A stretch of DNA of 64,000 bases from Candidatus Omnitrophota bacterium (GCA_029560465.1 JAKQKX010000045.1:152260-216259), one strand, 5' to 3'. Numbered from the stretch's first letter, positions 12,840-60,585 are shown. The notes: generated by a model from the sequence alone, not told the origin. Numbers and translations are program-made.

Positions 12840-14414
12840 ATGCAAATAAAAATAAAACATCTGAATTCCCCGCTGCCCTTTTCAGCAGAAATATTCAAAG
12901 AGTTCCTATTCCCTCTTATCCTGGCCGCTTTAATGCTGTTTCACGGCCTGTCCCTCATAAGCAAAGGCCCCTACCATGTAGACTGTCTCGGGTTAACCGT
13001 GGCCGCCGAAAAATCGCTGGAGACCCACAAACTTCATTTTAACGCCGGACACGGATATCCGCTCATACTGTTCCTCAGCATAATTTTTATCAGCATAGCC
13101 AACGTTTTTAATGTCGCGGATCCGGTTACCGCTGTTAACTTTATGAACGTCTTTTTCAGCTCAATCAGCGTCATTCCCTTCTTCTTCTTCCTTAAAAACT
13201 TGTTTAACGCCAAGACCGCTATCCTGGCATCCCTGTTGTTATGCATTAACCCGCTCTTCCTATCCACGTCTATTTACGGCAACAGCCATTCTCCTTTTTT
13301 ATTTTTCATGTTCGCCTCCCTTGGGCTGCTCACGATTTTCTTCAAATCCCATTCGACGAAGCACCTGGCCTTAAGCGCCCTCTTTTTCGGCTTATCCGGG
13401 GCCGCCCGAATCCAGGACATGGCCGCCATGATTATCCCGATGAGCTTTCTTTATGTCCTTCTGGCCCACCATTCGCCGATGAGCGTCCCGCGCAAGAAAA
13501 CGACATTTTTCTCGAAGCGCTTTCTTCTGGCTGTCCTCCTGGCCCTGCTCACCCTAACGCTCTTTTATGCCGCGGTCTTCACGAGCCGAGGGGTGAATTA
13601 TTTTAATAAAGGGTTCTTTCAATACCGCCTGCTGGACCCTTTCGCAGGATTGATCTCTGAATATCTAAAAATAAGTTTCGATTATCTTATTTCCAATTTC
13701 TCCTACTTGGGCCTCCTGGTTGTTATCGGGGGATTGATTATCCTGGCTTTTGAAAGCCGGCAAAAATTCTGGTTCCTGCTGCTCTGGTTTACAATCCCCT
13801 TCTTAGCTTTCGGCAATTCATTCTTCATTACCCCCCGCTTTCTCTTAACGAGCTTTGTCGCCCTTGTCATCAGCCAGGGATATCTGTTTTCAAAACTAAT
13901 CTCGAACCGCTCAAAACCCGTTGATATCTGCGGGAAAGTCCTGTTCATTCTCGTAGTCATATTGTCTTATCACAATATTTATCCGACGCTGTCTTTCCGG
14001 CACCGCCATGACCTTCTGCCGGAATACGGCCGTTGGATAGCCCGCGTCACGGAGCCAAACGCCAAAATCATCGTGGGCGACGAAAGGGCGTTCATTCAAT
14101 ACTACGGGAACAGGGAGACCATCCATCAAATTGTCACCGACACGACATATTACCAACAACAGGAATCTTTACGGGAAGAACTGCGGGCTTATAAAAAAAA
14201 CCTGGACGCCCTGCTGGACAGCGGGGTCCCGGTCTATATCACGGAAAACGGCCTCTTAAGCAACAATGTCGGGCTCTTTTATTTCTTTATCACGAAATAC
14301 TATAATCTGAGGTACCAGGGGGAAGCGCCCTTCGAAGTATGGCATCGTCGGTGCCTCAAACATCTGGTCATCCGGATCAAACTCTACCGTCTCACCCCAA
14401 AACCGACCTCATAA
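12840..14414 (+). CDS. Polytopic membrane protein, putative GT-C-type glycosyltransferase
   Basis: More than 10 TM helices over the first ~370 aa, then a ~150-aa soluble C-terminal domain. This architecture resembles its neighbours. It is the only long plus-strand gene in this block. Confidence 0.45.
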   Translation: MQIKIKHLNSPLPFSAEIFKEFLFPLILAALMLFHGLSLISKGPYHVDCLGLTVAAEKSLETHKLHFNAGHGYPLILFLSIIFISIANVFNVADPVTAVNFMNVFFSSISVIPFFFFLKNLFNAKTAILASLLLCINPLFLSTSIYGNSHSPFLFFMFASLGLLTIFFKSHSTKHLALSALFFGLSGAARIQDMAAMIIPMSFLYVLLAHHSPMSVPRKKTTFFSKRFLLAVLLALLTLTLFYAAVFTSRGVNYFNKGFFQYRLLDPFAGLISEYLKISFDYLISNFSYLGLLVVIGGLIILAFESRQKFWFLLLWFTIPFLAFGNSFFITPRFLLTSFVALVISQGYLFSKLISNRSKPVDICGKVLFILVVILSYHNIYPTLSFRHRHDLLPEYGRWIARVTEPNAKIIVGDERAFIQYYGNRETIHQIVTDTTYYQQQESLREELRAYKKNLDALLDSGVPVYITENGLLSNNVGLFYFFITKYYNLRYQGEAPFEVWHRRCLKHLVIRIKLYRLTPKPTS

Positions 14415-24576: not shown

Positions 24577-24872
24577 TGTCCCCTCTCCTTTCATCTCATC
24601 GCGTGATTTCGCTACAATCACTTGAATCATTATCTGCCCCTCTCCCCGCTTATACCTAAGAAAGGGATTGTTTCCTTAACAATAGTTTCCATTCTACTCC
24701 AAACAAAAACCCATAACAATCTATTCAACAAAATAACATTCTTCTTCCTCCCTAATTCTCGGCTTTCCTGGACATTCGTGACTGATGTTCCAAGGCGGGC
24801 TGTTGAGAACGCACTTCTCTTGCAAATTTTCAGGTCACCGGTTTTTTACGATTCAACGAGCCCTTTAAATTT

Positions 24873-24889
24873 TGGTGGAAACGCGGGGA
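24873..24889. repeat. Degenerate third copy (14/17) of the ssrA 3'-end att core TGGTGGAGGTGCGGGGA, with a shared TTTAAA(A)TTTTGGTGG flank
   Basis: TGGTGGAAACGCGGGGA at 24873-24889. The next ~150 bp has patchy similarity to the ssrA 3' half (CCACCCGG, CCGCCCC). Confidence 0.4.
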
Positions 24890-25158
24890 TCCAGGAAGCC
24901 CGGTTGGAAAATTTTGTTTATTTTCAAACGGCACGTGCCAGCCACCCGGGGCAAGCTTCCTGGTATCTACTGCGTACCAATTGTACAAGGCTCCGCCCCA
25001 AAAAAATTAATCCAGTTTTTTTGATAGGATGAAAGCCCTTGCCTCCAGGGAAGTACTTGGGTGCCGACACGCTTTGAAAAACATTAGGGGAAACGCCGTT
25101 TCGGGGATGGGAATCGATTGTTGTTTGATTTCACAAATAAAAACTTGAATCATCCCAA

Positions 25159-25857
25159 TCAATCCCACCCTGTCGCCGCGTTTGAATAATTCTCTCCGGA
25201 AGTACTATCCGGCGTTGTTTCAGGTTCTATAAGAAAAGCATTTCCTCCGGCTTTGCTCTTTTCTGTTTCCCACCATGCGAGAATTTCCCGCGCGCGTTCT
25301 TCCTGGGTCACTTCTTTAAAAAACGCGTTCCTGCCGAACACATCGGGGGGATAACTATTCCCTAACCCCACAGGATAAGGCCTTGCGCGATACGCTTCTA
25401 TCATGAGAATCGCTTCTTTCCCCACTGTCGATTTATGAGGGAAGGCGGTTAATCCCGGCACAAGGGCAGCGGCCGGCTGATTCGACTTCACATATTTAAT
25501 TAATTCATTCATGTCGGCCCTTCCGATCCACCCCTTATATATTTCTGGTTTTGAAGAACGACTAGGCCCGGCAAGAGGCTGCACGGTCACATTTTGTTTT
25601 GTGGCAAGAAAACGCAATAATTTTAAAGGCCCCGGATGCTTATCTTCTGTAAACAAGAGATAGTAAATAGCGGCAGGCTTGCCTTTCATTTGTTCATGGA
25701 CTGTTTTGCCGATCATTTCTTCATACTCTGTATCCGCGAGGGGTTCAAGGGAAGGGAATTGGGACGATGTGGCTTTTAAGCGGCCAGCGGCAATTATTAA
25801 GAACACGGCCCAAGCAATACACATGGCCACAGTCAGTAATATAAATTTTTTGTTCAT
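25159..25857 (-). CDS. Hypothetical membrane-anchored protein
   Basis: N-terminal TM anchor (FILLTVAMCIAWAVFLIIAAG) plus a soluble domain. Nothing recognised. Confidence 0.5.
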   Translation of the reverse strand: MNKKFILLTVAMCIAWAVFLIIAAGRLKATSSQFPSLEPLADTEYEEMIGKTVHEQMKGKPAAIYYLLFTEDKHPGPLKLLRFLATKQNVTVQPLAGPSRSSKPEIYKGWIGRADMNELIKYVKSNQPAAALVPGLTAFPHKSTVGKEAILMIEAYRARPYPVGLGNSYPPDVFGRNAFFKEVTQEERAREILAWWETEKSKAGGNAFLIEPETTPDSTSGENYSNAATGWD

Positions 25858-26173
25858 GTCGATAACCCCGTCCCATGATCCGGTGATTTCTTCATGTCAC
25901 AGGCTGTGCCCCGAGTGGTGTTGGCGGGCCTATTTTTGTTTCTTATAATTCCTCAATCCCCGGATGGCCGCGGTGTTGTCAGACACAAGGTTCTGCCATC
26001 CTGACCGGGCTTTTTCTCTTGAATCAAACCTAGGAAGGATATTTCCTTTTAAAATTATTCTTCTAACTGCTGAAATCACTGGTCTGATGTAACACCGTTA
26101 GGTGCGGATGACTATCCCCTTTGGGGAACCGGCCCCTTCACTTTTCACTTGTATTAACAGACACACACTCCCG

Positions 26174-27607
26174 TCAATGATATGCGCTCAGAGAAATCTT
26201 AATTAGCCTGTTATTTTTATCAAATATAAAGCTTAAATTCCCATACCCCATCCTGTAATCCATAATGTAATTATTTCCCAAGTATGCCTTTCCCCCTTCA
26301 TAATCTGATCCAAACTTTGTGACAATGGTTTCGACAGTTTCATTGTCACTCACATCACGGATGTCGCCTCCAAAAGAGCTATAATTATCATTTACCTGAT
26401 CATCGTTTTTCAGATATAAAGTCAAATCCAATATCTTGTTTTCTTCGATTATAATCTTTAACCCCTTGCCGGGATATTCGTGACTAACATTAAAAATATT
26501 GTCTTCACTTTTTTGCGGTCTTGTTCCGATTATCCTGACAATCTTATCAATATCCACATATTCATTTATTCGCAAAGACCCGAAATATCCTTTTTTCAAA
26601 TCCACTACTAACCTGTTCTTTTCTTCGACCGGCACCCGTTGCCCATCGTATTTCACCAGTCCTTTCGCCTTCTGTCCAGCCTCAAAATCCAGTTTCGCCT
26701 TACAATCATCAATATTATAGCCAAGAAATTTCCATCCGGGTTCCAGCTTCAAAGCCTCATCAAAAGATGATATTGCAGATGTCCAGTCACCTGCATTAAA
26801 ATAGCGCTCCCCTTCTTCCTTGTGCAACGTCGCATCACGCTGCTCTGGCTTGACCCATTTTCCACGGAACTTCACCAGTCCTTTCGCGATCTGCTGCCTT
26901 TCGAATTCAATGCCCACCTGACATTTAGCTATTTTTTCTTTCACGAAATCGTTATCAGGTTCAAATTCCAGGATCTGTTCGTAGGCTTTAATGGCTTTAT
27001 CATATTCTTGACTGGAAAATGCAGCTTGGGCCTGACTCAAAAACAGCTGAACAAGGTTGTTGCGGCAGTCTTGAATCCTGACTTTTGCGCCACCGTTCCC
27101 CGGGTCGACTCTCAATATCTCTTCATAATCGCTGAACGCCGCATAGAAATCACGACTATCATAGGCCTTGGAAGCTACCTGCATAAGGGTCTGGACCTGA
27201 AATAAACCCACATATTCGGCTGCCTTGGCGGCGAACTTTCCCACCGGGAAAGTCCTCAAATACTCATCCAGGAACTGCTGCGAATCACGTACATTCTTAT
27301 GCTTGAAATAATATTCACCTATCCGGAACAATGACTCTTCGCGATATCTCGAATCCGGATAATATTCGTTGATATGGGTAAATTTCAGGAAGGCAAGTTC
27401 ATCATTACCCTTCCTGAGCGCGCTCACTGCCTGCTTATACAAGGCAGTCCCCTCATCGGCACTGGCCAAACTTGGTCCAACACCAAAAAAGCAAAAGGCC
27501 GCAAGAAAGAAACAAGCTAATATTTCTTTCAGGACACGAAAAAGGGAGCCAAAGGGAATAACATGACCTCCTGAATGCTTCTTTATGACAATAGCAGGTA
27601 AATTCAT
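26174..27607 (-). CDS. TPR-repeat protein with two SH3b-like (KGLVKFRGKWV / KGLVKYDGQRV) modules; predicted exported or lipoprotein
   Basis: N-terminal hydrophobic segment and TPR-like repeats (ALYKQAVSALRKGNDELAFLKF, YDKAIKAYEQILEFEP). The gene is AT-rich (~40 % GC) relative to its surroundings. Confidence 0.55.
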   Translation of the reverse strand: MNLPAIVIKKHSGGHVIPFGSLFRVLKEILACFFLAAFCFFGVGPSLASADEGTALYKQAVSALRKGNDELAFLKFTHINEYYPDSRYREESLFRIGEYYFKHKNVRDSQQFLDEYLRTFPVGKFAAKAAEYVGLFQVQTLMQVASKAYDSRDFYAAFSDYEEILRVDPGNGGAKVRIQDCRNNLVQLFLSQAQAAFSSQEYDKAIKAYEQILEFEPDNDFVKEKIAKCQVGIEFERQQIAKGLVKFRGKWVKPEQRDATLHKEEGERYFNAGDWTSAISSFDEALKLEPGWKFLGYNIDDCKAKLDFEAGQKAKGLVKYDGQRVPVEEKNRLVVDLKKGYFGSLRINEYVDIDKIVRIIGTRPQKSEDNIFNVSHEYPGKGLKIIIEENKILDLTLYLKNDDQVNDNYSSFGGDIRDVSDNETVETIVTKFGSDYEGGKAYLGNNYIMDYRMGYGNLSFIFDKNNRLIKISLSAYH

Positions 27608-27658
27608 AGACCTTATTATATACCACTAACAAAACTAATCAGCCAAACTTCATAAAAA

Positions 27659-27990
27659 TTATCTTGACCTTCCCCAAATCGGTGAACAGTTAGTTAAGAC
27701 AGAACACTTTTTTTCGAACTCAACGGGACTCAGATAACCAAGCGTTGAATGAGCCCGCTTGCGATTATAGAACATTTCCACGTATTCAAAAATCCTTCGT
27801 TTGGCTTATTCCCGGGTCCTGAACTTGTACCGATGAACCAGTTCGACCTCAAGCGTGCGGGAATTCTGCATTCTGGGTCTGCATTCTGGGGACACGACAC
27901 TTAATTCCTTAAGCAATCTGCCCAAATACTTCACCCCAAAACGTTCAGACTGCTCTTTCAAAATTCTCAATAGCTGATTCTGTCCTCTTT
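27659..27990 (-). pseudogene. Degraded C-terminal fragment of an IS3-family transposase OrfB (rve integrase core tail)
   Basis: Minus-strand translation gives ...RTLEVELVHRYKFRTRE* then, after a frameshift, [26 protein letters not shown]. Compare the IS3 OrfB tail TLKVELVH..RF.TREEA...[26 protein letters not shown]. There are internal deletions, a stop and a frameshift. Confidence 0.5.
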
Positions 27991-28349
27991 TTTAAAGAAC
28001 ACATCCTGTCGACGGTTGCCACGCTGTACAACATGATGCAGCAGCCCTCCCACTACCACTCTGGCTATCCTTACCATCTCTTACCACATGTCCTCCTCAA
28101 TTAAGTATTGTGTCCCCGGAATTATGCTTCATTTCATCATACATATCTTTTTCTGATGGAATTTTTTGATTCCGTCCCTTTTGAAATAAATTCTTAATAC
28201 AATTCCTATCTTCATCTCCGGCATTTTGAGCCTAACGCAAAAAATAAGGGGCGTAAGCGAACGCCGGATGGGGCGGGCTTGTCCCGCTCAATTGCTTTGA
28301 GGGCGGCGGCCTTGGGGTTTACTGGTTACGGGCTTCAATTTTACTCTCG

Positions 28350-28556
28350 CTACCTTGTTGTTTGTATTGTTGAGCCGTCGTCTCTCGCGACTTCACCAAA
28401 ATGAGTCAGTGATAAAAGTAGTAATCCCATGAATAAAAAACAAAGCAAGCCAATCACTAAAAGGGCTACAGATAATTTTTTATTCTTTTTTATAAGAAAA
28501 AATGCGCATCCCGCCGCGGCAAATACAATTCCAAGAAGGCCGATAATTATTATCAT
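28350..28556 (-). CDS. Possible small membrane protein (68 aa, 2 TM)
   Basis: Two hydrophobic helices separated by KKNKK. It lies in the island between the IS remnants. Weak. Confidence 0.25.
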   Translation of the reverse strand: MIIIIGLLGIVFAAAGCAFFLIKKNKKLSVALLVIGLLCFLFMGLLLLSLTHFGEVARDDGSTIQTTR

Positions 28557-28683
28557 ATTGTGCTTCTCCTATAACGCCGCAAAGAACAAGCCGAGCCGAG
28601 ATGCTATGCAAAAAACGAGCAAGCCCCCTCGCGGTCTTGTTAATTTGTTTGCTGGCCCTTTCCGCTTCATATGTTATCCACAT

Positions 28684-29121
28684 TCAATAAAGAATGTTAT
28701 CAAAACTGAATGGCTTCGTGCGATAGGTATCCCAAATTTTCGCCGCTTCCTCTTCTGCCCACGCTTCAAAGCCGAGTTTCTTCATCATACACAGTTGGTA
28801 CATTTTCATATTGTGTGGAAAATGTGCTTGATCAGCATAAGGCTGAAAGCGCTCGCATGGGAAATTATCACACTCGTGACAAAAATCGATGCCCTTTTCC
28901 CCGGTGCAGAGGAATATCTCACACGTCTTCTCCGGGTTCAAGAAAGGGATATTGCCTTTCTGAAGGCGGCATCCCTCGCATGTGGCTTTTTCCGGTGGGA
29001 TACCAAGGGCCGTCACCAATTTCTGTAAAATATCAGGATTCTCCTTGGCGAGATAGGCCGGACAGTGAAAACACGGCAATCCGCATGGAGATGTCATTGT
29101 TTTTGCTTTATCCTTGTCCAT
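28684..29121 (-). CDS. Cys-rich DUF3795-family protein
   Basis: The Cys pattern CGLPCFHCPAY...CEGCRLQKG...CEIFLC...FCHECDNFPC matches DUF3795. Confidence 0.55.
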   Translation of the reverse strand: MDKDKAKTMTSPCGLPCFHCPAYLAKENPDILQKLVTALGIPPEKATCEGCRLQKGNIPFLNPEKTCEIFLCTGEKGIDFCHECDNFPCERFQPYADQAHFPHNMKMYQLCMMKKLGFEAWAEEEAAKIWDTYRTKPFSFDNILY

Positions 29122-29328
29122 GGGTATTCCTTCTTTGTTAAGTGTTTAATCCGGGAATCTTAATGATATTTCAGGTCAACATTAAGCTCAGCGCCGGCTG
29201 TAAGACGCCCGTTGGATTTTCTTGTTGGGTCAAGAGGAGTTTTACAAAAACTGGATTAACAAAGAACTCGATCTACACAAAAAAATTCTTGCTTAGCTAG
29301 GGTCATTACAAATTCCTTGGACCATTTA

Positions 29329-29496
29329 TACCGCAATGCCTTCCTTGCGGCAAATCTCCGATATCGGAACATTTCCCCGAAGCCCTTCTAACACAATACG
29401 AATCTTTTCATCCGGCGTGAACTTACGGCGGGTTGCCCTGCGGATTTCTTTAACAACATCTTTCGGCTTGTTCACGGCCTCATTATGGAGCTGAAA
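29329..29496 (-). pseudogene. N-terminal HTH fragment of an IS3-family transposase OrfA, with no start codon and truncated
   Basis: Reads ...RRKFTPDEKIRIVLEGLRGNVPISEICRKEGIAV*. Compare IS3/IS407-group OrfA: F(S/T).E.KI.I(V/L)RE.EAG..V.ELCRKHGIS. It is bounded by an upstream in-frame TGA and has no ATG. Confidence 0.5.
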
Positions 29497-29608
29497 TCAG
29501 GGTTTCTCAACCCTTAAAACTCTCTCTTAATTCAAGACTCCAATCTGTCTCACTTTTGCTGACGAGGAACAGTATTGAACTTCAATAAGTAGCGAGTCCT
29601 TAAAAATT

Positions 29609-29625
29609 TTGGTGGAGGTGCGGGG
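29609..29625. repeat. Exact 17-bp direct repeat of the ssrA 3' end (TGGTGGAGGTGCGGGGA): a putative distal att site of a 1.43-kb islet
   Basis: Identical to 31039-31055, with similar upstream flanks (AAAATTTTGGTGG vs TTTAAAATGGTGG). Confidence 0.6.
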
Positions 29626-29785
29626 ATACAATTAGAGAAGCAGAAAGAGTCCGTTTATTTTCAATGGGTTACATCAAATATCGTCGATAATGATCCCCCA
29701 AATAATTTCCATACGTTATACAACTTTATACAATTTTTTCCTACGTTTTCACTTTCGATGGGCACTTATTGGGCACCAAAGATAT

Positions 29786-30193
29786 CTATTCCAAAAGATA
29801 TCTTTCTTGAATTTCACTCAAATCATTTCCTGCTTTGCCAGTTTTAGTTTGTATATGACGAACAATTGTATCAAAACGAATTTTTGCATTTAAGCGTTCT
29901 TCTAAAGTCTTACGTCTAAAATTCCTCCGTTTCTCTCTATTAAACAAATATTTTAGAGGAGTAATAAGTACGATTCCTCTATTATCAATCTTTTCGTATA
30001 AATCTATTTTGTAATTTTTCGTAAAAACAACAATTAAATATTCAATATATAATGACATTGCATTAACAACACTGGCTACCTGCTTAAATTTAAAGTATTC
30101 AACATCACTCCATCTGACAGTATGCATTGAAGTCTTAATGCAATCGGCATAAACAAATCCATCTCCAAATTTTAAACCACTACTAGATGTCAT
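29786..30193 (-). CDS. Hypothetical protein (135 aa), AT-rich islet cargo
   Basis: ORF in a ~35 % GC segment, codirectional with and 104 bp downstream of 30298..30846. No recognisable motif. Confidence 0.5.
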   Translation of the reverse strand: MTSSSGLKFGDGFVYADCIKTSMHTVRWSDVEYFKFKQVASVVNAMSLYIEYLIVVFTKNYKIDLYEKIDNRGIVLITPLKYLFNREKRRNFRRKTLEERLNAKIRFDTIVRHIQTKTGKAGNDLSEIQERYLLE

Positions 30194-30297
30194 CTGTTTT
30201 CTTTAGCCTCCAAGATATAACAATACCCAAAGATCCTCGGCAATAGTAAGGCTGTGAATTATGCCATACGAGACTTGCGACTATTTTTTAAATCATA

Positions 30298-30846
30298 CTA
30301 GTCCTTATTTTTTACTAAGTCGACAATCACCCCGCCCTTTTCCTCAAAGCAATCTATTCTAATTGGCATTAATGCACCATTTGCCACATAATCTTTAATA
30401 AAACCTGATTTCTCTTTAGGCAAACTATATGCAGAGATGAGCGGGGTCAACCCGGTCTTTTCTGAAAGAGTTTCGACATGATCCGGGGCATCCCGCCGGG
30501 AGACCCTGATAAAGTTTCCTCTCTTATCTTGAAACAAAAGATAGTCATCAGCATTTGCATGAAAAACCCCGCTATGATTACACGGTCTCAGCACTCTCTC
30601 CACAACAACCTCCGTCCCCTTTGCTATTGAGAAATCATTGTAAACCAAATCCATCTGCAAAGTTGAACCCGTTCCTGCACATACGCCAATAAAGGGAAAT
30701 TCCATCGCCTCAAGACCTAGAAGAGAAATAAACGGTTCTTTAGATTCAGCGTACAAATACCTACCACCTATACCGACTTCACGCAGAATATTTTTATAGA
30801 CCTTCTCATATTCGGGCTTTGAAGTATATTTTAATTTTCTCGTCAT
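30298..30846 (-). CDS. Hypothetical protein (~182 aa from ATG 30846), AT-rich islet cargo
   Basis: ATG at 30846 is preceded by AAGGTG-n7. The listed ORF begins at a TTG at 30870 inside the terminator hairpin. No recognisable motif. Confidence 0.5.
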   Translation of the reverse strand: MTRKLKYTSKPEYEKVYKNILREVGIGGRYLYAESKEPFISLLGLEAMEFPFIGVCAGTGSTLQMDLVYNDFSIAKGTEVVVERVLRPCNHSGVFHANADDYLLFQDKRGNFIRVSRRDAPDHVETLSEKTGLTPLISAYSLPKEKSGFIKDYVANGALMPIRIDCFEEKGGVIVDLVKNKD

Positions 30847-30861
30847 TTTTGAGCACCTTAA

Positions 30862-30895
30862 AAAAGGCAACTCCTAAAAACGGGAGTTGCCTTAA
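30862..30895 (-). terminator. Strong hairpin (11-bp perfect stem AAGGCAACTCC / GGAGTTGCCTT) followed by TTTTT on the minus strand, located between ssrA and the islet cargo genes
   Basis: Perfect inverted repeat at 30865-30875 / 30883-30893 with T-run on the minus strand. It separates ssrA from the cargo operon. Confidence 0.5.
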
Positions 30896-31038
30896 AATTA
30901 CAAAATTAATTGTTCCAATATTTCCTCATTTTTTCATTCTCTCAGCACGGGCACCTTTTGGGCACCACTACATCAAGGAAATAGCAACACTTCTGTAAGT
31001 TGCTGTCAATTTTTATATTTACAACACTAAGATTTAAA

Positions 31039-31427
31039 ATGGTGGAGGTGCGGGGAATCGAACCCCGGTCCTTCAGTTGCTTCCCATAAGCCTCTACATG
31101 CGTAGTTTGTCTTTAAGTGTCGCCTGAAACCACCCGGCAAACAGGGCTGTTTCAGGCCATCCTCCTTAAATTTCGCCGCCGCCCCGAAGGCGCTGGCCGC
31201 GGCTAGCCTGCTGAATGTCCTCTTATAAACCCACAGGCCTGGCTAATAAGAGGGCTTTACTTTTTTATTAAGCAAAGACTGGTTGGGCTTCGGCTAAAAT
31301 AGCCTCTGCCTCGGCAACAACACTGTAAGTGCCATTTGTTTTGTGCCCGGATGATTAACGAGGCCAACCTGGCGTCCTCGGCATGCCACCTATGGTCTCT
31401 CAACTTAAGTCGAGACCAATCACCCCC
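31039..31427 (-). ncRNA. ssrA: tmRNA (SsrA)
   Basis: The minus strand reads 5' GGGGGUGAUUGGUCUCGACUU... and ends ...GGACCGGGGUUCGAUUCCCCGCACCUCCACCA (tRNA-Ala-like T-arm/acceptor plus CCA). The internal reading frame ...AEAEAILAEAQPVFA ends with tandem UAA UAA. smpB is immediately upstream. Confidence 0.85.
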
Positions 31428-31521
31428 ACATAAAATTTTTCAGCTAAGCACACTCAATTATATACCCAAACGCGCCCCGCTGCAAATACCCGCCCGGCAA
31501 GCCCCCGGCCCTGCCATGAGG

Positions 31522-31989
31522 CTACCTGGCGCGTTTCACCACCCGCAACGACTGCCTTAAAGACCGCTCAATATCGCGCTTCTTCATCGATTCCCTCTTA
31601 TCATACAATTTCTTCCCGGTCCCCAACGCGAGTTCAATTTTAACTAACCCGCGATTATTCAAATAAATCTTTGTCGGCACCAGAACCTTGCCCCGCTCGG
31701 CCACCTCGGAAACGATCTTGCGGATCTCCCGCTTGTGCATAAGCAGTTTTCTCGCCCGGTCCGGGTCCTCATTCATGTAACTGGCTTCCTTATAAGGATT
31801 GATGTGCAGGTTGTATAAAAACACCTCGCCGTCTTCGATCTTCGCGAAGCTGTCCTTGAAATTCACCAGCCCCGCGCGCACAGCCTTCACTTCCCCGCCT
31901 TTAAGCTCAATCCCGCATTCCCAGTTCTGGCTTAAAAAATAATTATGATACGCTTTTTTATTCGTGGCGACCGGTTTAGACATGATCAA
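31522..31989 (-). CDS. smpB: SsrA-binding protein SmpB
   Basis: KKAYHNYFL...GIELKGGEVK...LLMHKREI...LVP...YL..RG..K.ELALGTGKK are canonical SmpB motifs. Confidence 0.9.
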   Translation of the reverse strand: MIMSKPVATNKKAYHNYFLSQNWECGIELKGGEVKAVRAGLVNFKDSFAKIEDGEVFLYNLHINPYKEASYMNEDPDRARKLLMHKREIRKIVSEVAERGKVLVPTKIYLNNRGLVKIELALGTGKKLYDKRESMKKRDIERSLRQSLRVVKRAR

Positions 31990-32942
31990 TAGGAATTCGT
32001 AATAAAATTATAAATGGTTAACACGACGGGAATCGTCAAAACGCTGATCAGGGAATCCCAGAAAATCCCCTGGTTGATGAGTTCCGAATCGACTTTATAA
32101 TAACGGATCATCATCGACAGGGACACCGCGCTGGGCACCGCGGCCTGAACCACCAGCATAAACCCGGCGACGTACGGGAGCGCCAGCGCTTTCACCGCCA
32201 CCAAAGCCAGCGCCGGAAGGAGGATGAGTTTGCCGAAAATCAAATACCGCATATCCGTCTTATCCACCGCCTGCAGATTGGTCTTGGCCAGGTTGCCGCC
32301 GGTCACGATCATGGACAACGGCAACGCGCAATCGGAAAACATCTTCACGGGCTTGATCACCGCCGGAGGCACCCAGCGGTGCCAGCCCAGCATGATCAAC
32401 AGCAGGCTGGCCACAGTGGTGACAAACGGCGGGTTCAGCAGCCGCCCCCAGTAAATGGTTTTGTCTTTATGGCTGGTCAAAAGCCACACCCCCAGGGACC
32501 AGACCGCGAAGTCAAAGCCCATGATCATCAGGAAAATCGTGACGGTCAGGGACTCCGCCCGCTGGCCATCGAACAAAGACGCCACCAGCATAAGCGGGAT
32601 ATACCCGTAATTCGCGAAAGCCATCAGCGCGGTGAAATGGCTCTGGTTCCGGCATCCCTTGTTAAACACCAAAAGCGCGCGGCTGACGGCAACGCCCGAC
32701 AGCACAATGCCGACGCTCAAAAGCGGGTACCCCCACCAATACGTGTAATCGCTAAAATGAAAATGCTGCGTCAGGTGATAAAAGATCATCTGCGGCAGAA
32801 ACACCTTCACCAGCAGATTGGACAGCATATCCAGCCCCGGATCATCCAGCAGGGATGTTTTAACCAGGGCGAACCCCACCCCGGCCATCAAAAGAATCTG
32901 GATCGTCGCGACCAGCGTCGCCTGAAATGTTTCTAGTAACAT
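31986..32942 (-). CDS. AEC-family (auxin efflux carrier-type) membrane transporter
   Basis: ~10 TM helices in a 318-aa ORF with the AEC/MDR-permease pattern (LVKVFLPQMIF ... GNLAKT ...). Confidence 0.7.
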   Translation of the reverse strand: MLLETFQATLVATIQILLMAGVGFALVKTSLLDDPGLDMLSNLLVKVFLPQMIFYHLTQHFHFSDYTYWWGYPLLSVGIVLSGVAVSRALLVFNKGCRNQSHFTALMAFANYGYIPLMLVASLFDGQRAESLTVTIFLMIMGFDFAVWSLGVWLLTSHKDKTIYWGRLLNPPFVTTVASLLLIMLGWHRWVPPAVIKPVKMFSDCALPLSMIVTGGNLAKTNLQAVDKTDMRYLIFGKLILLPALALVAVKALALPYVAGFMLVVQAAVPSAVSLSMMIRYYKVDSELINQGIFWDSLISVLTIPVVLTIYNFITNSY

Positions 32943-33036
32943 AGTAAAGGATTATAACAAGTTCGGCCGTAATGAGCAAAAGATTATTGCAGCGGGTTCC
33001 CAGGAACTCAAACGCCAAAAGGGAGAAAGCCCGGCG

Positions 33037-34485
33037 TCAGCCCGGATGCCTGCGGGGCGGCTTGTAAATATGCGTAGCCGGCCCGAAAAAAGTCTCCGCC
33101 GCTTCCATGACGGTTTCGGACAGGGTGGGATGAGGATGAATACTATCTTTCAGGTCTGCGGCGGCCGCGCCCATTTCAATCGCTAAAACCCCTTCCGCGA
33201 TCATCTCCCCCGCGCCCACACCCGCGATAGCCATCCCCAGAAGGAGGCCGGTTTTGTCATCGACAATCAGTTTGGTCAGGCCGTCTGTCCGGTTCAGCGT
33301 GACCGCCCGCCCGGAAGCGGCCCAGGGGAATTTCAGGACTCTGACTGGCAACCCCTGCTCGACGGCCTGGCTTTCGGTGATACCGCACCAGGCGATCTCA
33401 GGGTCGGTAAAAACAACGGCGGGAATCGCCTTGGGCGGCAAAGCCGCCTGCTGCCCGGCAACCGCCCCGGCCGCGGCCCGGCCTTCATGTGAAGCTTTAT
33501 GAGCCAGCATAGGGTTGCCGACGATATCGCCGATCGCGTAAATAGCCGGGTCATGCGTCTGGCCGGCGGTTTTGACAGCGATAAAGCCCCTGTCGGTCAG
33601 CTGAACCTGGGTGTGTTCCAAACCCAGGCCGGAAGCGTCCGGCTTGCGGCCGATGGCGATAAGGGCCTTGTCATAAATTTCAGAGGACGCCTGCCCCTCC
33701 CTGTCTTCAAAAAACACCTCAACCGCCTCACCCGTATCTTTTAGCCCGCTGACTCTGGTGTTCAGTTTGATGGCTTCAAATTGGGACGCCAACTTTTTCT
33801 TAAGCAGAGCGCTTAAATCCGCGTCCACTCCAGGAAGAAGCCCGGCCGTCATTTCCACCACGGACACGGCGCTTCCCAACTGGGCGTAAACAGTGCCCAG
33901 TTCAAGCCCGATATACCCGCCGCCGATCACCAAAAGTTTCTTCGGGATGCCCGGCAAAGCCAGCGCGGACGTGGAATCCAGAATCTGCGGGGATGCCGGG
34001 GCAAAAGGAAGCGTGATGGGCACGGACCCGGTCGCGATGATCGCGTGTTCAAATTCTATGGTTATTGCGGAGCCGTCCGTAGCAGCCACGGTCACGGACC
34101 GCGAATTTAAAAAGGAAGCGTGCCCCTGGATAAAACGGACCTTCCTTTGCTTGCACAACTGGCCCAGTCCGCCGGTTAATTTGGAAACAACTTTGTCTTT
34201 CCACTGCCGGATACCTTCAACATCCACGCGGGGTTCTCCAAATTCGACGCCGAACTCTTTCGCTTCTTTTGTTTCGGAAATAATACGGGCCACGTGCAGA
34301 AGGGTTTTGGACGGGATACAGCCCCGGTACAGGCAGACGCCTCCGGGATTCTTTTCAGGATCAACACAGGTGACCTCAACCCCCAGGTCAGCGGCGTGAA
34401 AGGCGGCCGCGTAGCCTCCCGGCCCGGCGCCAATAACTAGGAGTTGGGTTTTTAATAATTCCATGTCCGGCCCCGTTTTCAGCAA
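33037..34485 (-). CDS. lpdA: Dihydrolipoyl dehydrogenase
   Basis: FAD motif GAGPGGYAAA, redox-active disulfide GGVCLYRGCIPSK, NAD motif GGGYIGLE and a C-terminal HPHPTLSE interface motif. Confidence 0.88.
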   Translation of the reverse strand: MLKTGPDMELLKTQLLVIGAGPGGYAAAFHAADLGVEVTCVDPEKNPGGVCLYRGCIPSKTLLHVARIISETKEAKEFGVEFGEPRVDVEGIRQWKDKVVSKLTGGLGQLCKQRKVRFIQGHASFLNSRSVTVAATDGSAITIEFEHAIIATGSVPITLPFAPASPQILDSTSALALPGIPKKLLVIGGGYIGLELGTVYAQLGSAVSVVEMTAGLLPGVDADLSALLKKKLASQFEAIKLNTRVSGLKDTGEAVEVFFEDREGQASSEIYDKALIAIGRKPDASGLGLEHTQVQLTDRGFIAVKTAGQTHDPAIYAIGDIVGNPMLAHKASHEGRAAAGAVAGQQAALPPKAIPAVVFTDPEIAWCGITESQAVEQGLPVRVLKFPWAASGRAVTLNRTDGLTKLIVDDKTGLLLGMAIAGVGAGEMIAEGVLAIEMGAAAADLKDSIHPHPTLSETVMEAAETFFGPATHIYKPPRRHPG

Positions 34486-34518
34486 AAAGGGGCCTGGTCA
34501 GCCCCTGGATATTATTAG

Positions 34519-34601
34519 TGCCGAAGGTGGGACTCGAACCCACATGGCCGAGGGCCACACGCCCCTGAAACGTGCGCGTCTACCAATTTCGCCACTTCGG
34601 C
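34519..34601 (-). tRNA. tRNA-Leu(CAG); CCA is not encoded
   Basis: The minus strand reads GCCGAAGUGGCGAAAUUGGUAGACGCGCACGUUUCAGGGGCGUGUGGCCCUCGGCCAUGUGGGUUCGAGUCCCACCUUCGGCA. It has a long variable arm, an anticodon loop UUCAGGG giving CAG, and a GUUCGAGUC T-loop. Confidence 0.8.
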
Positions 34602-34687
34602 AAAAATTCTCTATATTAATTTAAGGCCTTTTTGCCTCGCGGCGGAACCGAGCCTCCTCTGAAATCAAAACTGCGGCTGGCTCATTT

Positions 34688-34709
34688 GCGCCACTTCGGC
34701 AAAAATTTT
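34688..34709. repeat. Direct repeat of the tRNA-Leu 5' end plus flank (GCGCCACTTCGGCAAAAATTTT), ~100 bp upstream of the tRNA
   Basis: 34690-34707 is identical to 34591-34608 (GCCACTTCGGCAAAAATT). The intervening sequence has weak tRNA-like features. It is a possible att remnant or partial tRNA duplication. Confidence 0.4.
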
Positions 34710-34750
34710 CTGCGTAAAATCCGGTGAATCGTAGCTCAAAGTATAGCGGT

Positions 34751-35752
34751 TCACGGGGATTCTGTCAATATTTTCCCTTCTGAAATATCTGTTCCCGCCC
34801 CTTCCGGTCCTAATATGGGGCCGAGGTCCCGCGCGAGCTCTTCCGAAAAACGCGTGGCCCCCTTATAATTCAGATGCTGGGAATTGAAGAACATGTCTTC
34901 CTGCCGGGTGATGCCGGCGGACGAATAATCCAGCAAGGGAAGGCCGTACTGTTGGGCGTACTGGTGATACAGGTTTTTGGCTTCCCGATAATTAACGACA
35001 AAATCATTAAACTCATAATACCCCGGCGCGTAAACCAGGATCAGCCGGATATGTTTCTCCCGGCACAGCCGGATCAAATCTTCAAAAGCCTCCTTCCCCT
35101 CAGGCGTGATCTGGTCGACAATCCCGTGTGGATACAGCTTTTTCACGGTGGCGATGTCGCTCTTTCTGTTCCATGCCATGTCCACGGGGCAATACCCGTT
35201 ATTGCACTGCGGCGGGTCTTCCTGTCCGGTCAGCCCCTGCCAGGCGTCCACCGTGAAAGCCGGGCTCAACAAGGCGAAACTGTACAAGGGAACATACCGG
35301 GCGAGGATAAAATGTTTGGAAATCCGGCTGAGCGGGCGGTAAATTTCCTCTTCATTCAAATAAGGGACAAACTGCCCCGGATTATACGCCCGGGGTTTCC
35401 TCAGCATATTGCGGCCCACCACCTGAATAATGGCCTCCGGCGCCTTGTTGTGTTTTAAATAGACTTTCAACCGGGCCACCTGGATGCTCAGCGAGTTTCC
35501 TTTCAGCGCCAGGTTAAAACATTTTTTCTTAAAATAATCTTCTAGCGTCAGGACATCCACCCCGCACTGGGCCCGGGACGCGCCGGTCACCAGGATGTCC
35601 GCGTTGATCCGGCCGTTGACAATCCGGTTCCAATCGCCGAAGTCCCCGGTTGTCCGCGCCCTGAAGCCTTCCATAAGATAGGAATGCCCGGCCATGGAGA
35701 TGGCCAGGAACAACACCGTAAACGCGGTCATTTCTTTGAGGGCGTGTCTCAT
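34751..35752 (-). CDS. Membrane-anchored partner of the MBOAT protein (DltD/AlgJ-like, putative O-acyltransferase accessory protein)
   Basis: N-terminal TM anchor plus a ~300-aa exported domain. It lies immediately downstream of and codirectional with the MBOAT gene, the genomic context typical of DltB-DltD and AlgI-AlgJ pairs. No catalytic motif confirmed. Confidence 0.4.
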   Translation of the reverse strand: MRHALKEMTAFTVLFLAISMAGHSYLMEGFRARTTGDFGDWNRIVNGRINADILVTGASRAQCGVDVLTLEDYFKKKCFNLALKGNSLSIQVARLKVYLKHNKAPEAIIQVVGRNMLRKPRAYNPGQFVPYLNEEEIYRPLSRISKHFILARYVPLYSFALLSPAFTVDAWQGLTGQEDPPQCNNGYCPVDMAWNRKSDIATVKKLYPHGIVDQITPEGKEAFEDLIRLCREKHIRLILVYAPGYYEFNDFVVNYREAKNLYHQYAQQYGLPLLDYSSAGITRQEDMFFNSQHLNYKGATRFSEELARDLGPILGPEGAGTDISEGKILTESP

Positions 35753-57372: not shown

Positions 57373-58818
57373 TTACTGTACCTGGACTTTCAACTGTTCC
57401 AAAAAATCCTCAAATTTTTTCCACCAACCCATATCACCGCTTAAATCAAGCATTCTCACAAGCTCTTTATCCTGAAAGATATTCTCACCAATACTTCGTA
57501 ATTCAGGTACTACTTTTTTTATATTTTCTTTAGAAACTTCGTTAGGGATCTTAAATTTACACGGGTCGGGCTCCCATCGCCTTATAATACGCACTGTAAG
57601 GCATAAAAGATATTTCATCTCGTTTTTTTCTTTGTCAAAATATGTGATAAAATCATCGTTAAAGATTCTATGCTCTATGCCAAAAATAAAGCCAAAAAAT
57701 ATAGCGAGAAAATCAAAATTATCTGGGATTATGGGATTTTTAACCGCCTGGCCACTGCTATATCGCAACTCGTCATAATTAAATATACACTCGACAAAAT
57801 CATACTTTTTATTTCTTAAGGCATAGGCCCCAACTGAAAAAATAATTCTTAACAAAGAATTATATCTGTATATTTTAGCAAACTGGGCAGATTCTTTCTT
57901 TATATCCTCTTCAAACTCATTGTCTGCCGGAGCTACATTTCGAATAACAGTAACAATCTTTTGAAAATCGTCATTCCATTGCGCTGACTGTCTTTGCCTA
58001 CACAAATATTTAATATTGTCTTTTAATTTATAATAACTTGCTGAAAACGGCCCCTGTTCTGCCCCTGCCAAAAGTTCCCGATAATCGCTCAGTTCTTTAC
58101 CATAACCAGGATCCTTCTCCTGCCCCAATGTTTCATCAACCGCTATATGTTGAATACATCTTTTAAATTGCTCAATTCGATTTTTATCAACAAGCTGAAT
58201 AAGTGCCACCCCAAAATACCTATTGAATATCGGCAAAAGCTCGAGATTAAACTTCCATTCGGCCTCCTTTCCGTTCTTAACAGATAAAAAAACAGGTTCT
58301 AAATACCAGTCAGTAAGAAGATCATCTGACACAAGAGCACGCATTTTTTCATTCTCGTTAATTCTTATTATCTTTTCTAGCACAAAATTTACAAAAGCTT
58401 CTCTCCGGATTAATTCATCTCTGAGAGTGTACTTAATAATTTCCAACAAAAAGTCACCCCACACCCCCATAATTTCATCACAGATAAATAAATAACCACT
58501 TTCAACCGCAGCCCTACAAATTCTATCTAGTTGTTCAACAGGAACCGCAAATCCATCCAGATATTCTTCTGATCTATGGATTAAACGAAAACCGCGTAGG
58601 GGATCCTTGGCAAGTGTAGCAAATTGAGAAGATGTAACGATATCCTTAAATCTTGCAAAATCTTTCTCATAATATTCAAACATCTTTAAAATTATTTTCT
58701 TGAATTCGCTTAAGTGCCGGGATATAAACTGCCTGTTCCCTTTCTTGGCTTCATAACAAAGGATATTTCCTATCCCTTGAATAGATTGTAAATACCGTTC
58801 TTTTGTTATAGATTTCAT
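57373..58818 (-). CDS. Hypothetical 481-aa protein in an AT-rich (~35 % GC) inserted cassette
   Basis: Long ORF with very different base composition from its flanks. No recognisable catalytic motif. The gap to the upstream 4-TM gene is 2 nt (58819-58820). Confidence 0.6.
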   Translation of the reverse strand: MKSITKERYLQSIQGIGNILCYEAKKGNRQFISRHLSEFKKIILKMFEYYEKDFARFKDIVTSSQFATLAKDPLRGFRLIHRSEEYLDGFAVPVEQLDRICRAAVESGYLFICDEIMGVWGDFLLEIIKYTLRDELIRREAFVNFVLEKIIRINENEKMRALVSDDLLTDWYLEPVFLSVKNGKEAEWKFNLELLPIFNRYFGVALIQLVDKNRIEQFKRCIQHIAVDETLGQEKDPGYGKELSDYRELLAGAEQGPFSASYYKLKDNIKYLCRQRQSAQWNDDFQKIVTVIRNVAPADNEFEEDIKKESAQFAKIYRYNSLLRIIFSVGAYALRNKKYDFVECIFNYDELRYSSGQAVKNPIIPDNFDFLAIFFGFIFGIEHRIFNDDFITYFDKEKNEMKYLLCLTVRIIRRWEPDPCKFKIPNEVSKENIKKVVPELRSIGENIFQDKELVRMLDLSGDMGWWKKFEDFLEQLKVQVQ

Positions 58819-58820
58819 GT

Positions 58821-59312
58821 TTATTTCAAAAATTCATCCAAATCTTTCAACAAATCTTTTATCAGCACTTCTCTGGACACCACATATTTTCTGGCCGTCA
58901 TTAAGAACTGAATGAAAAGCAAAATTACAAAAATAAACGAAAGGAAATCACTCCACAACAAAAGTGTTTGTGTAATATTCAAAGCATCTTCATTTTTTAT
59001 AAAAAAAAGCAGAAGGCAGGAAAAAACAATATGACCTAAAGCTACTGGCGGTAATAACTTAATAAATACTTCTTCACTAAAGCGTTCACCTATTACGTTA
59101 GATTCATATCTATCAGAAATCCTGCTAACGATATCAAGTGTCACCGGATATGCAATGCCCATAATCGCGGCTTCAAAGGCTATAACTGACTGTAAAAAAC
59201 TACTGTTGGGCATAAACCGGCCTAAGTAACAACCAATAGCGAACCCCAGTAAAGACCCGAAAACTATTTCATAATCATCGGGAATAGGACATTTTTTTGA
59301 CATGGGATTCAA
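58821..59312 (-). CDS. Hypothetical 4-TM membrane protein (163 aa), first gene of the AT-rich cassette
   Basis: Four predicted TM helices. AT-rich. It is followed 2 nt later by the start of the 481-aa gene. Confidence 0.55.
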   Translation of the reverse strand: MNPMSKKCPIPDDYEIVFGSLLGFAIGCYLGRFMPNSSFLQSVIAFEAAIMGIAYPVTLDIVSRISDRYESNVIGERFSEEVFIKLLPPVALGHIVFSCLLLFFIKNEDALNITQTLLLWSDFLSFIFVILLFIQFLMTARKYVVSREVLIKDLLKDLDEFLK

Positions 59313-59403: not shown

Positions 59404-60585
59404 TTAGCTTTTATACACCCTGGGGAGGCGGCTGCCCAGGCTACAGAGGATTTCGTAATTGATCGTTCCCGCGTACCCGGCCAGCTCATCGGCTGCAATC
59501 TCCTCCTGCTTCTGTTTGCCAAGGATCACCGCCGTCTGCCCGATCTTCACTCCCGGGACGCGGGACACATCCACGACAATCTGATCCATGGTGACCCGCC
59601 CCAGGAGGGGGCAGCGCTGCCCGTTAACAAGGACCGAAGACTTGTTGGACAAACTGCGGAAATAACCGTCGCTGTACCCGATCGGCAGGACCGCGGCCAC
59701 CAGGTCACACGGCGCGACAAACGTGTGCCCGTAACTGATGCCCTGGCCTTTCAAAACCGTCTTGATAAAGATAATCCGCGTTTTCACGCTCATTGCCGGC
59801 TGGAGCTTAACTTTCTGCGCCAGGCGTATATCGGGGTAAAGCCCGTACAGCATGATCCCGGGGCGGACCAGGTTAAAGATCACCGCTTGGTAATCGATCA
59901 GCCCGGCGCTGTTAGCCGCGTGGACATACGGGACCACCAGTCCCTGCCGGTCAAGGGTCTTGACCAATTCATGCATCTGCGTAACTTGCGTGACCGTATA
60001 GTCCGGATTGCTGTCCGCCAGGGGGAAATGGGTGTAAAGCCCTTTGACGGAAAGGTTCTTAAGACGCATCACGTCCTTAATAAAGCCTTCCGCGCCCCGA
60101 TGCCAAACCCCGAGCCGCCCCATGCCGGTATCAACTTTGATATGAACATCAACCGGCCGGCCGATCTTCTTGGCGTAAGTGTTTAAAGACGACGCCAAGG
60201 ACAGCGTGCAAACCGTCGGGATCAGGTTATAATCCACAATATCCTTAACTTGCGAGGGGAGCGAAGTTTCTAAAAGCAGAATTTTCTTCTTGATGCCGTT
60301 TTTCCTTAAAAGGATGCCTTCCGGGATATCGGACACCCCGAAAAATTCCACGCTCATCCGGTTGAGCATTTGTGCCACCTGAATCATGCCGTGGCCGTAG
60401 GCGTCCGCCTTGATCACGGTCAGGACTTCCGGAAACCGCGCGGCCTTCCTCCCTTTGGCGGGATACGGGAGCAGCTCGACTTGCCGCTCCTGGACCATCT
60501 TCCTGATCTGCTGATAATTATTCCGGATGGCTTTCAAGTCCACCTCCACCCAGGACAAATAATGATGCGCTTGACGCAAGCTCAT
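59404..60585 (-). CDS. alr: Alanine racemase
   Basis: PLP-lysine motif VIKADAYGHG and full-length Alr architecture. Confidence 0.9.
   Translation of the reverse strand: MSLRQAHHYLSWVEVDLKAIRNNYQQIRKMVQERQVELLPYPAKGRKAARFPEVLTVIKADAYGHGMIQVAQMLNRMSVEFFGVSDIPEGILLRKNGIKKKILLLETSLPSQVKDIVDYNLIPTVCTLSLASSLNTYAKKIGRPVDVHIKVDTGMGRLGVWHRGAEGFIKDVMRLKNLSVKGLYTHFPLADSNPDYTVTQVTQMHELVKTLDRQGLVVPYVHAANSAGLIDYQAVIFNLVRPGIMLYGLYPDIRLAQKVKLQPAMSVKTRIIFIKTVLKGQGISYGHTFVAPCDLVAAVLPIGYSDGYFRSLSNKSSVLVNGQRCPLLGRVTMDQIVVDVSRVPGVKIGQTAVILGKQKQEEIAADELAGYAGTINYEILCSLGSRLPRVYKS

Follow-up and report, generated by a model that had tools for sequence, protein, structure and literature searches.

What lies directly behind ssrA, the gene for transfer-messenger RNA (tmRNA), in Candidatus Omnitrophota, and by what route did it arrive? 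The question is raised by a 64-kb stretch of DNA from one such bacterium (GCA_029560465.1 JAKQKX010000045.1:152260-216259; hereafter the window, in whose numbering all coordinates are given unless a comparison locus, designated by an L number, is named), in which an intact ssrA is followed by displaced copies of its own 3' end. Counting the end of ssrA itself as copy 1, three such core copies delimit two segments: islet A (29627-31039), adjacent to ssrA, and region B, the DNA between core copies 2 and 3. The initial annotation had read the whole as a mosaic of islets integrated one after another at ssrA, whose integrase subsequently decayed. We consider it quite probable that the region is an array of site-specifically integrated islets, with islet A belonging to an integrase-borne family and region B since reshaped; the absence of an integrase is a separate matter, for which decay is not the only explanation.

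The repeated unit, TGGTGGAGGTGCGGGGA, is the reverse complement of the last 17 nucleotides (nt) of ssrA, CCA included. Copies 1 and 2 are exact and lie one base higher than first annotated, while copy 3 was placed and scored correctly as a 14/17 match; all three occur on one strand, as had been noted, in the downstream direction from ssrA. Shuffled sequence leads one to expect 0.27 matches per window at the 14/17 level, and copy 3, taken alone as such a match, would not be significant. A second exact 17-mer in 128 kb (the two strands of the window) has, by arithmetic, an expectation of about 7e-6, far beyond chance. It is thus most improbable that the repeats are due to chance, to a dispersed family unrelated to ssrA, or to an assembly artefact. 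An independent assembly from another sample (L081, ENA ERZ761564) is 99.96% identical over 28066-35196 and reproduces copies 1 and 2, so that the arrangement is no assembly accident; L001 has the same architecture, and copy 3 is backed by an independent hidden Markov model (HMM) and a homologous junction in L231, both described below. For copies 1 and 2 we tested and reject this explanation, and no sign was found that the repeats form a dispersed family. An intact target gene together with displaced 3' fragments in the same orientation (here full-length ssrA with copies 2 and 3) is the arrangement by which Islander recognizes islands within genes for tRNA and tmRNA (tDNAs).

Islet A is 1.4 kb long, is bounded by exact 17-bp direct repeats and has a GC content of 35.6%, against 50.4% for the window; together with values of 43.9% for region B and 52-54% for the flanks, this bears out the AT shift of the segments noted initially. 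Relatives in which the corresponding ssrA site could be compared were located by using smpB as an anchor, except that L231 and L232 (JGI 3300045917 and 3300038673) were retrieved by a search with the distal 780-residue protein. In L002, L231 and L232 the 3' end of ssrA is joined straight to the sequence that in the window runs from 29609 to 29572. The flanks of L231 and L232 are 97-99.6% identical to the window and those of L002 about 91%, and the 55 nt of core and flank (29626 to 29572) are 100% identical in L231 and L232 and 92.7% identical in L002. To the base, the empty site consists of the left side of attL and the right side of attR, and islet A is therefore inserted, not ancestral: it lies between the 3' end of ssrA and the former downstream flank of that gene. 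Such precise empty sites also give islet A the sporadic occurrence expected of tDNA islands. For the proximal segment the original proposal of site-specific integration at ssrA thus stands, and the same content without repeats, which would have argued for an ancestral state, was not encountered in these relatives. The hairpin whose 5' half is left at 29572-29609 is complete in L002 and L001. A complete chromosome, L003, was tried as an outgroup and was of no use, since its synteny ends at ssrA.

Could the differences among strains instead have arisen mainly by homologous recombination, through allelic replacement with ssrA and conserved distal genes as its anchors, the repeats being old scars? 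We think this rather unlikely. The limits of islet A fall exactly at the 17-bp repeats, and a base-exact empty site is the signature of conservative site-specific recombination; moreover, the terminal arms of the islet are conserved across hosts whose SmpB proteins are only 55-65% identical to that of the window. Region B, considered below, provides what evidence there is in favour of allelic replacement.

By comparison of its ends with those at other loci, islet A can be assigned to a family of ssrA-targeting elements that is spread through Omnitrophota. The arms of the family are about 90 nt (attL) and about 170 nt (attR) long, and in each the hexamer GTGCCC occurs as a pair, with a separation of 11 bp and at a fixed distance from the core: 75 nt in attL and, in attR, 142 nt ahead of the terminal CTCCACCA of the core, a spacing that is identical in L110, L143 and L150. 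In attL, a TTGACA box and a -10-like hexamer separated by a 17-nt spacer and followed by GTGCCCAAAAGGTGCCC form a layout common to L001, L005, L006, L012 and L052, and GTGCCCAAAnGGTGCCC starts 73-75 nt past the end of ssrA in L001, L005, L012 and L052. In attR the GTGCCC pair is followed by CATCGAAAGTGAAAACGT, a TTGTATAA pair (TTGTATAAAGTTGT), TTGAAAATAAAC and the ssrA core. Islet A has both the TTGACA box and GTGCCCAAAnGGTGCCC at the distance typical of the family, with TTGACA at 31009-31004, a 17-nt spacer, TGCTAT at 30986-30981 and GTGCCCAAAAGGTGCCC at 30965-30949, the last beginning 75 nt from the end of ssrA. Its attR arm runs through GTGCCCAATAAGTGCCC (29776-29760), CATCGAAAGTGAAAACGT, TTGTATAAAGTTGTATAAC (29733-29715), ATCGACG (29688-29682) and TTGAAAATAAAC (29664-29653), which on the plus strand starts 43 nt from the core. 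HMMs trained solely on loci other than the window (nhmmer) recover both arms, the attR arm at E=6.2e-36, whereas copy 3 matches the last 55 positions of the attR model only, at E=0.005. The strict GTGCCCAAAnGGTGCCC-type motif has exactly two occurrences in the 64 kb, and both lie inside islet A. Conservation of the arms across hosts as distant as those with SmpB merely 55-65% identical to that of the window argues for a dedicated recombination system. A simple promoter and terminator scanner flagged neither the TTGACA/TGCTAT site of attL nor the hairpin at 30893-30859.

What such a system might use is seen in the longer members of the family. In L052, L006 and L086 the order is tmRNA, a homologue of o190 (the first gene of islet A, lying in these elements between attL and the integrase gene) and a 343-residue tyrosine integrase; the same integrase is also encoded behind the tmRNA gene in L039 and L012, and L134 completes the list of carriers. 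In full-length members the integrase is encoded next to attL. It has a Pfam Phage_integrase domain (E=1e-35) and a SAM-like domain, with an N-terminal extension ahead of both, and by analogy with lambda-type att sites the GTGCCC pairs are putative arm-type sites for the N-terminal domain, although they could instead be the operator of a regulator. The search for a cognate tyrosine integrase recommended at the outset was thus rewarded in related elements (L052, L006, L086, L039 and L012), with none in the window.

Exact-motif scans of viral and metagenome collections placed 45 of 143 occurrences within 600 nt downstream of the gene for a distant tyrosine integrase (23-31% identity), which suggests that GTGCCC-N5-GTGCCC may be an arm-type site in wide use beyond the family; in such scans the motif is often a chance match, many hits being apparently unrelated and 85 of the 143 occurrences having no integrase gene in the locus, and they are useful only once filtered by a neighbouring core or integrase. 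At L115, L116, L162, L222 and about 40 further loci from the scans, GTGCCCAAAnGGTGCCC lies between the 3' end of a tDNA and a convergent gene for a distantly related tyrosine integrase, with offsets of +71 and +73 at tRNA-Ala, +35 at tmRNA and +156 at tRNA-Ser genes. An abundant human-gut element (an unannotated phage record) has the motif 181 nt past the end of the integrase alignment. L108, with two motifs 296 nt apart, was considered as an attP or empty cassette and rejected, being a duplicated arm start broken by a small open reading frame (ORF).

Why, then, is there no integrase in islet A? A tblastn search of the 64-kb window with the family integrases (E<=10) returned no credible match and no remnant, and domain searches of the islet ORFs found no mobility domains, Phage_integrase included; the integrase inside the island that Islander demands is therefore missing, as the initial annotation had said. 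One explanation is that complete integrase-bearing elements integrated in turn and each lost its integrase in place, leaving the islets as immobile fossils. Consistent with this, islet A keeps o190 as well as a vestigial ribosome-binding site (RBS) and start codon, features that precede the integrase in L052, L086, L006 and L039; erosion is plain to see in copy 3 and its arm; the window has a weakened -10 box; and region B, with its piece of IS3 and its shortened trmO-like gene, shows decay in progress. We nevertheless find it doubtful as a full account. Not even a remnant of the integrase is detectable at the threshold given above, the attR arm of islet A is as good as any in the family (119 bits), and at least six other integrase-less islets retain full arms. 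One and the same site holds two distinct integrase-less members in genomes that share about 95% identity, and is empty in a strain about 99% identical; repeated and rapid loss of the integrase would have to be invoked.

The integrase-less islets with full arms are found at L001, L017, L025, L042 (two in tandem) and L057, and carry unrelated cargo: a PEP-CTERM protein, HTH_17 and Fic/Doc proteins, TauE, an amino-acid permease, a pilin-like gene and an RND efflux pump. With arms intact, they make up most of the members recovered. L001 has a different islet at this site, with arms that share 80% and 68% identity with those of islet A, against about 95% for ssrA and smpB, a divergence that argues for independent arrivals. 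Given repeated arrival of members lacking an integrase, supply of the enzyme in trans would be the simplest explanation, as has been suggested for the cis-mobilizable elements (CIMEs) and Dehalococcoides islands discussed below. Decay as initially envisaged is hence not demonstrated, there being no remnant, the intact-arm integrase-less form being the commonest one recovered and L001 holding another such islet at the same site; we regard supply in trans as at least as likely as simple decay. Islet A itself looks to be derived from an integrase-bearing element, because it keeps o190 and the vestigial RBS and start codon; in L039 and L134 an RBS of the GAGGAAATATTG type is directly followed by the integrase gene, as read from the translation of the L039 ORF. 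Whether islet A arrived through an integrase acting in trans, and could still leave in this way like a cis-mobilizable element, seems to us evenly balanced. Among the other islets, that at L017 (11255-11943; 1.1 kb) holds only the HTH_17 and Fic/Doc proteins, which may be a toxin-antitoxin-like pair forming the sole cargo of a cassette, and L042 has a c-di-AMP riboswitch (13096-13243) ahead of the amino-acid-permease gene, within an integrase-less ssrA islet.

Region B presents a less orderly picture. The flank of copy 3, AAAATTTAAAGGGCTCG, resembles that of copy 2, the two copies sharing a 61-nt repeat of 70% identity, and L231 has a homologous distal junction at 9250 (15/17 core plus flank, with CGGGCTTCC upstream of the core; it scores 35, and the best shuffle reached 21). 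From these similarities and the match to the attR model we infer copy 3 to be what erosion has left of the attR of an older islet. The initial annotation had also perceived a resemblance to the body of ssrA in the roughly 150 bp beyond copy 3, and this must be withdrawn: when the 200 nt that follow copy 3 are aligned locally, the score obtained is also attained by 289 of 500 shuffles, in-register identity is 23%, and Rfam gives no tmRNA signal there at E<=10. The likeness retained beside copy 3 is to the attR arm of the element family.

Beyond copy 2 only 38 nt are common to the relatives, and the interior differs in all four. The gene o232, for a membrane-anchored protein, is present in each of them, and in the window its allele is an outlier, with 82-85% nucleotide identity against 90-93% among the other relatives, though the flanks of the window and L231 are about 99% identical. 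The distal junction lies upstream of o232 in L231 and downstream of it in the window. The trmO-like gene has lost about 400 bp relative to L002, whose intact gene matches Pfam TrmO_N at E=1.4e-40, and the DUF3795 gene is absent at this place from L001, L002 and L231. It is here that allelic replacement has its best case: the sequences on either side of region B are about 99-100% identical to L231, but region B itself has different cargo and an o232 only 82% identical; none of its interior breakpoints (29572, 26145 and 25112) coincides with a core repeat; and L002 has a 4-kb low-GC variable segment with neither repeat nor integrase. Rather than a single clean islet, the distal 4.7 kb is a mosaic to which deletion, allelic exchange and an IS3 fragment have also contributed. 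The notion of a sequential mosaic of islets is accordingly well supported for its proximal part and has to be modified for the distal one, where only 38 nt are shared, the junction changes sides of o232 and o232 itself is divergent. As to the cargo predicted at first, the DUF3795 (E=3e-19), tetratricopeptide repeat (TPR; E=5e-18) and C-terminal IS3 transposase (E=4.6e-11) assignments were recovered; the SH3b domain also predicted for the TPR protein was not detected. About 190 bp beside the IS3 fragment are flanked by a 24-nt inverted repeat of 88% identity (27883-27906 and 28099-28122). The peptide RIARVVVGGLLHHVVQRGNRRQDVFF (about 28000-28090, minus strand) may resemble the N-terminus of IS200/RAYT-type Y1 transposases; it matches nothing in Pfam or NCBIfam, and we did not retain this reading.

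We hypothesize recombination, by a tyrosine integrase of the family, between ssrA and an attP that bore the 3' end of that gene; this would have rebuilt the gene from element DNA and moved its original 3' fragment to 29610-29626. Islet A would descend from an integrase-bearing element and later have been served by an integrase supplied in trans, with newer islets entering beside ssrA and pushing older ones outward. For region B, the simplest history would start from the order ssrA, cargo, core, o232 islet, core, chromosome, after which each lineage would have lost one core, with allelic exchange coming next; in the window the DNA between copies 2 and 3 would have been reshaped by deletions, by insertion of IS3 and by exchange of alleles with a strain more divergent than these.

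Several observations weigh against this account. The statistics of copy 3 are marginal (E=0.005), and the homologous junction of L231 is on the other side of o232, so that region B needs extra events. Presence and absence among strains could in principle come from homologous recombination across ssrA. The donor of an integrase in trans is hypothetical, the window containing none, and no attP circle junction was observed in the assemblies, which cannot show excision. Contact between integrase and the GTGCCC pairs is putative. Finally, the -10 box reads TGCTAT in the window and TACTAT in L001 and L006.

Table 1. Features of the ssrA locus in the window, from smpB outward through islet A and region B
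Feature	Position	Strand	Basis or remark
smpB, chromosomal neighbour just upstream of ssrA	31522-31989	-	Pfam SmpB, E=4.7e-55
ssrA (tmRNA), intact, tag peptide GTYSVVAEAEAILAEAQPVFA	31040-31427	-	ARAGORN; Rfam RF00023, 181.6 bits, model positions 1-374
Core copy 1, 3'-terminal 17 nt of ssrA (attL core)	31040-31056	-	Exact match
attL arm of islet A	30949-31039	-	Left-arm HMM built on 7 other loci: 31038-30949, E=1.5e-16; alignment; motif census
Vestigial RBS and start codon GAGGAAATATTG, opening a 6-codon ORF	30927-30916	-	Read from sequence
Hairpin AAGGCAACTCC/GGAGTTGCCTT, then T-run	30893-30859	-	Read from sequence
o190, 182 residues from ATG at 30846, first gene of the element	30298-30846	-	Homologues; AlphaFold2 (AF2) model
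o135, 135 residues, cargo ORF at the place of the integrase in full-length relatives	29786-30193	-	No detectable family
attR arm of islet A	29627-29779	-	HMM of attR arms from 5 other loci: 29779-29610 including core, E=6.2e-36, 119 bits; alignment
Core copy 2, displaced ssrA 3' fragment (attR core of islet A)	29610-29626	-	Exact match
Sequence directly following ssrA where islet A is absent; 5' half of terminator-like hairpin	29572-29609	-	Comparison with L231, L232, L002
DUF3795 cargo gene, window-specific part of region B	28684-29121	-	Pfam, E=3.1e-19
IS3 transposase fragment, last ~48 residues only (approximate limits)	27700-27870	-	NCBIfam transpos_IS3, E=4.6e-11, positions 322-369/369; Pfam rve_2, E=1.8e-12
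TPR / BamD(YfiO)-like cargo protein, 477 residues	26174-27607	-	Pfam TPR_2, E=4.8e-18; YfiO, E=4.6e-11
trmO-like gene remnant: upstream region and last ~30 codons kept	25930-26145	-	BLAST against L002; sequence reading
o232, 232-residue membrane-anchored protein, function unassigned	25159-25857	-	Present in all four relatives
562-bp segment with copy 3	24596-25157	-	Not present in L231 and L232; o232 there directly adjoins the next gene
Putative decayed attR: TTGAAAATAAAC (24927-24916) and core copy 3 (24889-24873)	24873-24927	-	nhmmer, E=0.005, HMM positions 118-172
Core copy 3	24873-24889	-	14/17 match to ssrA 3' 17-mer
Predicted attP circle junction of islet A			...CATTGAAAATAAACGGACTCTTTCTGCTTCTCTAATTGTATCCCCGCACCTCCACCATTTTAAATCTTAGTGTTGTAAATAT...
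Empty attB junction			...GGTTCGATTCCCCGCACCTCCACCAAAATTTTTAAGGACTCGC...

Some further features of these elements deserve mention. o190 belongs to an uncharacterised family of proteins of about 170 residues (63 representative clusters), in which H123 is invariant and R87, H96, N98 and D122 are near-invariant. Its AF2 model is confident (predicted local distance difference test 90.7, predicted template modelling score 0.87) and Foldseek at E<=1e-3 matched it to nothing in PDB or BFVD, nor did the protein match Pfam, PHROG, NCBIfam or PADLOC. Homologues elsewhere adjoin restriction-modification, deaminase, AlkB-like or AbiEii genes, and o190 may be an accessory or anti-defence gene. Homologous 'mini-islets' of about 157 bp, bounded by copies of the ssrA 3' end, are present at L001 (6803-6976), L008 (10897-11069) and L025 (11035-11210), each with three hairpins whose pairing is apparently kept by compensatory changes; hairpin 2 with its T-run is terminator-like, and hairpin 3 mimics an extended T-arm ending in the core. 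Their left half recurs at L008 (14642 and 15941) and L150 (23 and 1581), and they may represent a second arm type or a cargo-less element. Elsewhere in the window, a second low-GC segment (about 35%; 57373-59312) carries two genes on the minus strand, with ORFs of 481 and 163 residues, and may be another small insertion; its neighbours, from translations read by eye, we take to be a permease-like gene and an alanine-racemase-like ORF (59404-60585).

A short attachment core flanked by long arms that hold arm-type integrase sites is found in the lambda-type attP. The Omnitrophota elements are similar in that both arms, long ones beside a short core, contain short direct repeats whose distance from the core is fixed, and in that the integrase has an N-terminal extension; they differ in that GTGCCC-N5-GTGCCC is unrelated to the lambda arm sites, and the protein that binds it is only putative. 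In Dehalococcoides, low-GC, strain-specific islands lie in tandem downstream of the single-copy ssrA, and many have no integration module and are read as cis-mobilizable or fixed (PMC3146451). Tandem ssrA islands, some without integrase, and low GC are common to both groups; the Dehalococcoides integrase DsiB, however, is a large serine recombinase within a six-gene module, whereas that of the Omnitrophota family is a 343-residue tyrosine recombinase, and the Omnitrophota islets are much smaller (about 0.8-5 kb) and have arms with paired GTGCCC motifs.

CIMEs, known from the ICESt1 family of Streptococcus thermophilus (Pavlovic et al. 2004, as reviewed in PMC5704250), have lost the genes for integration and transfer and kept attL and attR; they are defined as decayed integrative and conjugative elements (ICEs) or integrative and mobilizable elements (IMEs) moving together with an adjacent functional element, and their accretion in tandem has been reviewed (PMC5704250). 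Islet A corresponds to the structural half of this description, since both arms score as family members and neither an integrase nor mobility domains are present. The window differs in that it contains neither a conjugation nor a mobilisation gene and no neighbouring element that bears an integrase, so that mobilisation would have to be deduced; nor were conjugation or relaxase genes seen in the family members examined. For the tDNA islands catalogued by Islander and TIGER, an intact tDNA and a displaced 3' fragment in the same orientation mark the ends and tyrosine integrases are the catalysts; the tmRNA gene is the most enriched island target, tandem arrays occur, and Islander demands an integrase gene inside each island (PMC4383910). 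The Omnitrophota islets share the intact ssrA and displaced fragment and differ in the absence of an internal integrase, and they would therefore be filtered out of such catalogues.

Islands at tmRNA genes, their accretion in tandem and their integrase-less derivatives are already established, and in this respect the finding itself is ordinary. We found no earlier defined ssrA-targeting family for Omnitrophota, a phylum known almost only from metagenome-assembled genomes, and the explicit models of the att arms make this one searchable. Because most recovered members have no integrase, integrase-centred island finders (with a filter like that of Islander) would miss most of them. GTGCCC-N5-GTGCCC is a candidate arm-type site which, if confirmed, could help in predicting att sites for integrase bioprospecting. 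A bolder possibility, which we put forward tentatively, is that integrase-less islets are the normal form of a cassette system, with cassettes of about 0.8-5 kb between an attL of about 90 nt and an attR of about 170 nt. If so, capture, stacking and exchange at ssrA across Omnitrophota would be carried out by a shared tyrosine integrase borne by a minority of elements, giving an integron-like array at the tmRNA gene with GTGCCC-N5-GTGCCC sites that are apparently also used by a broader clade of tDNA-targeting integrases.

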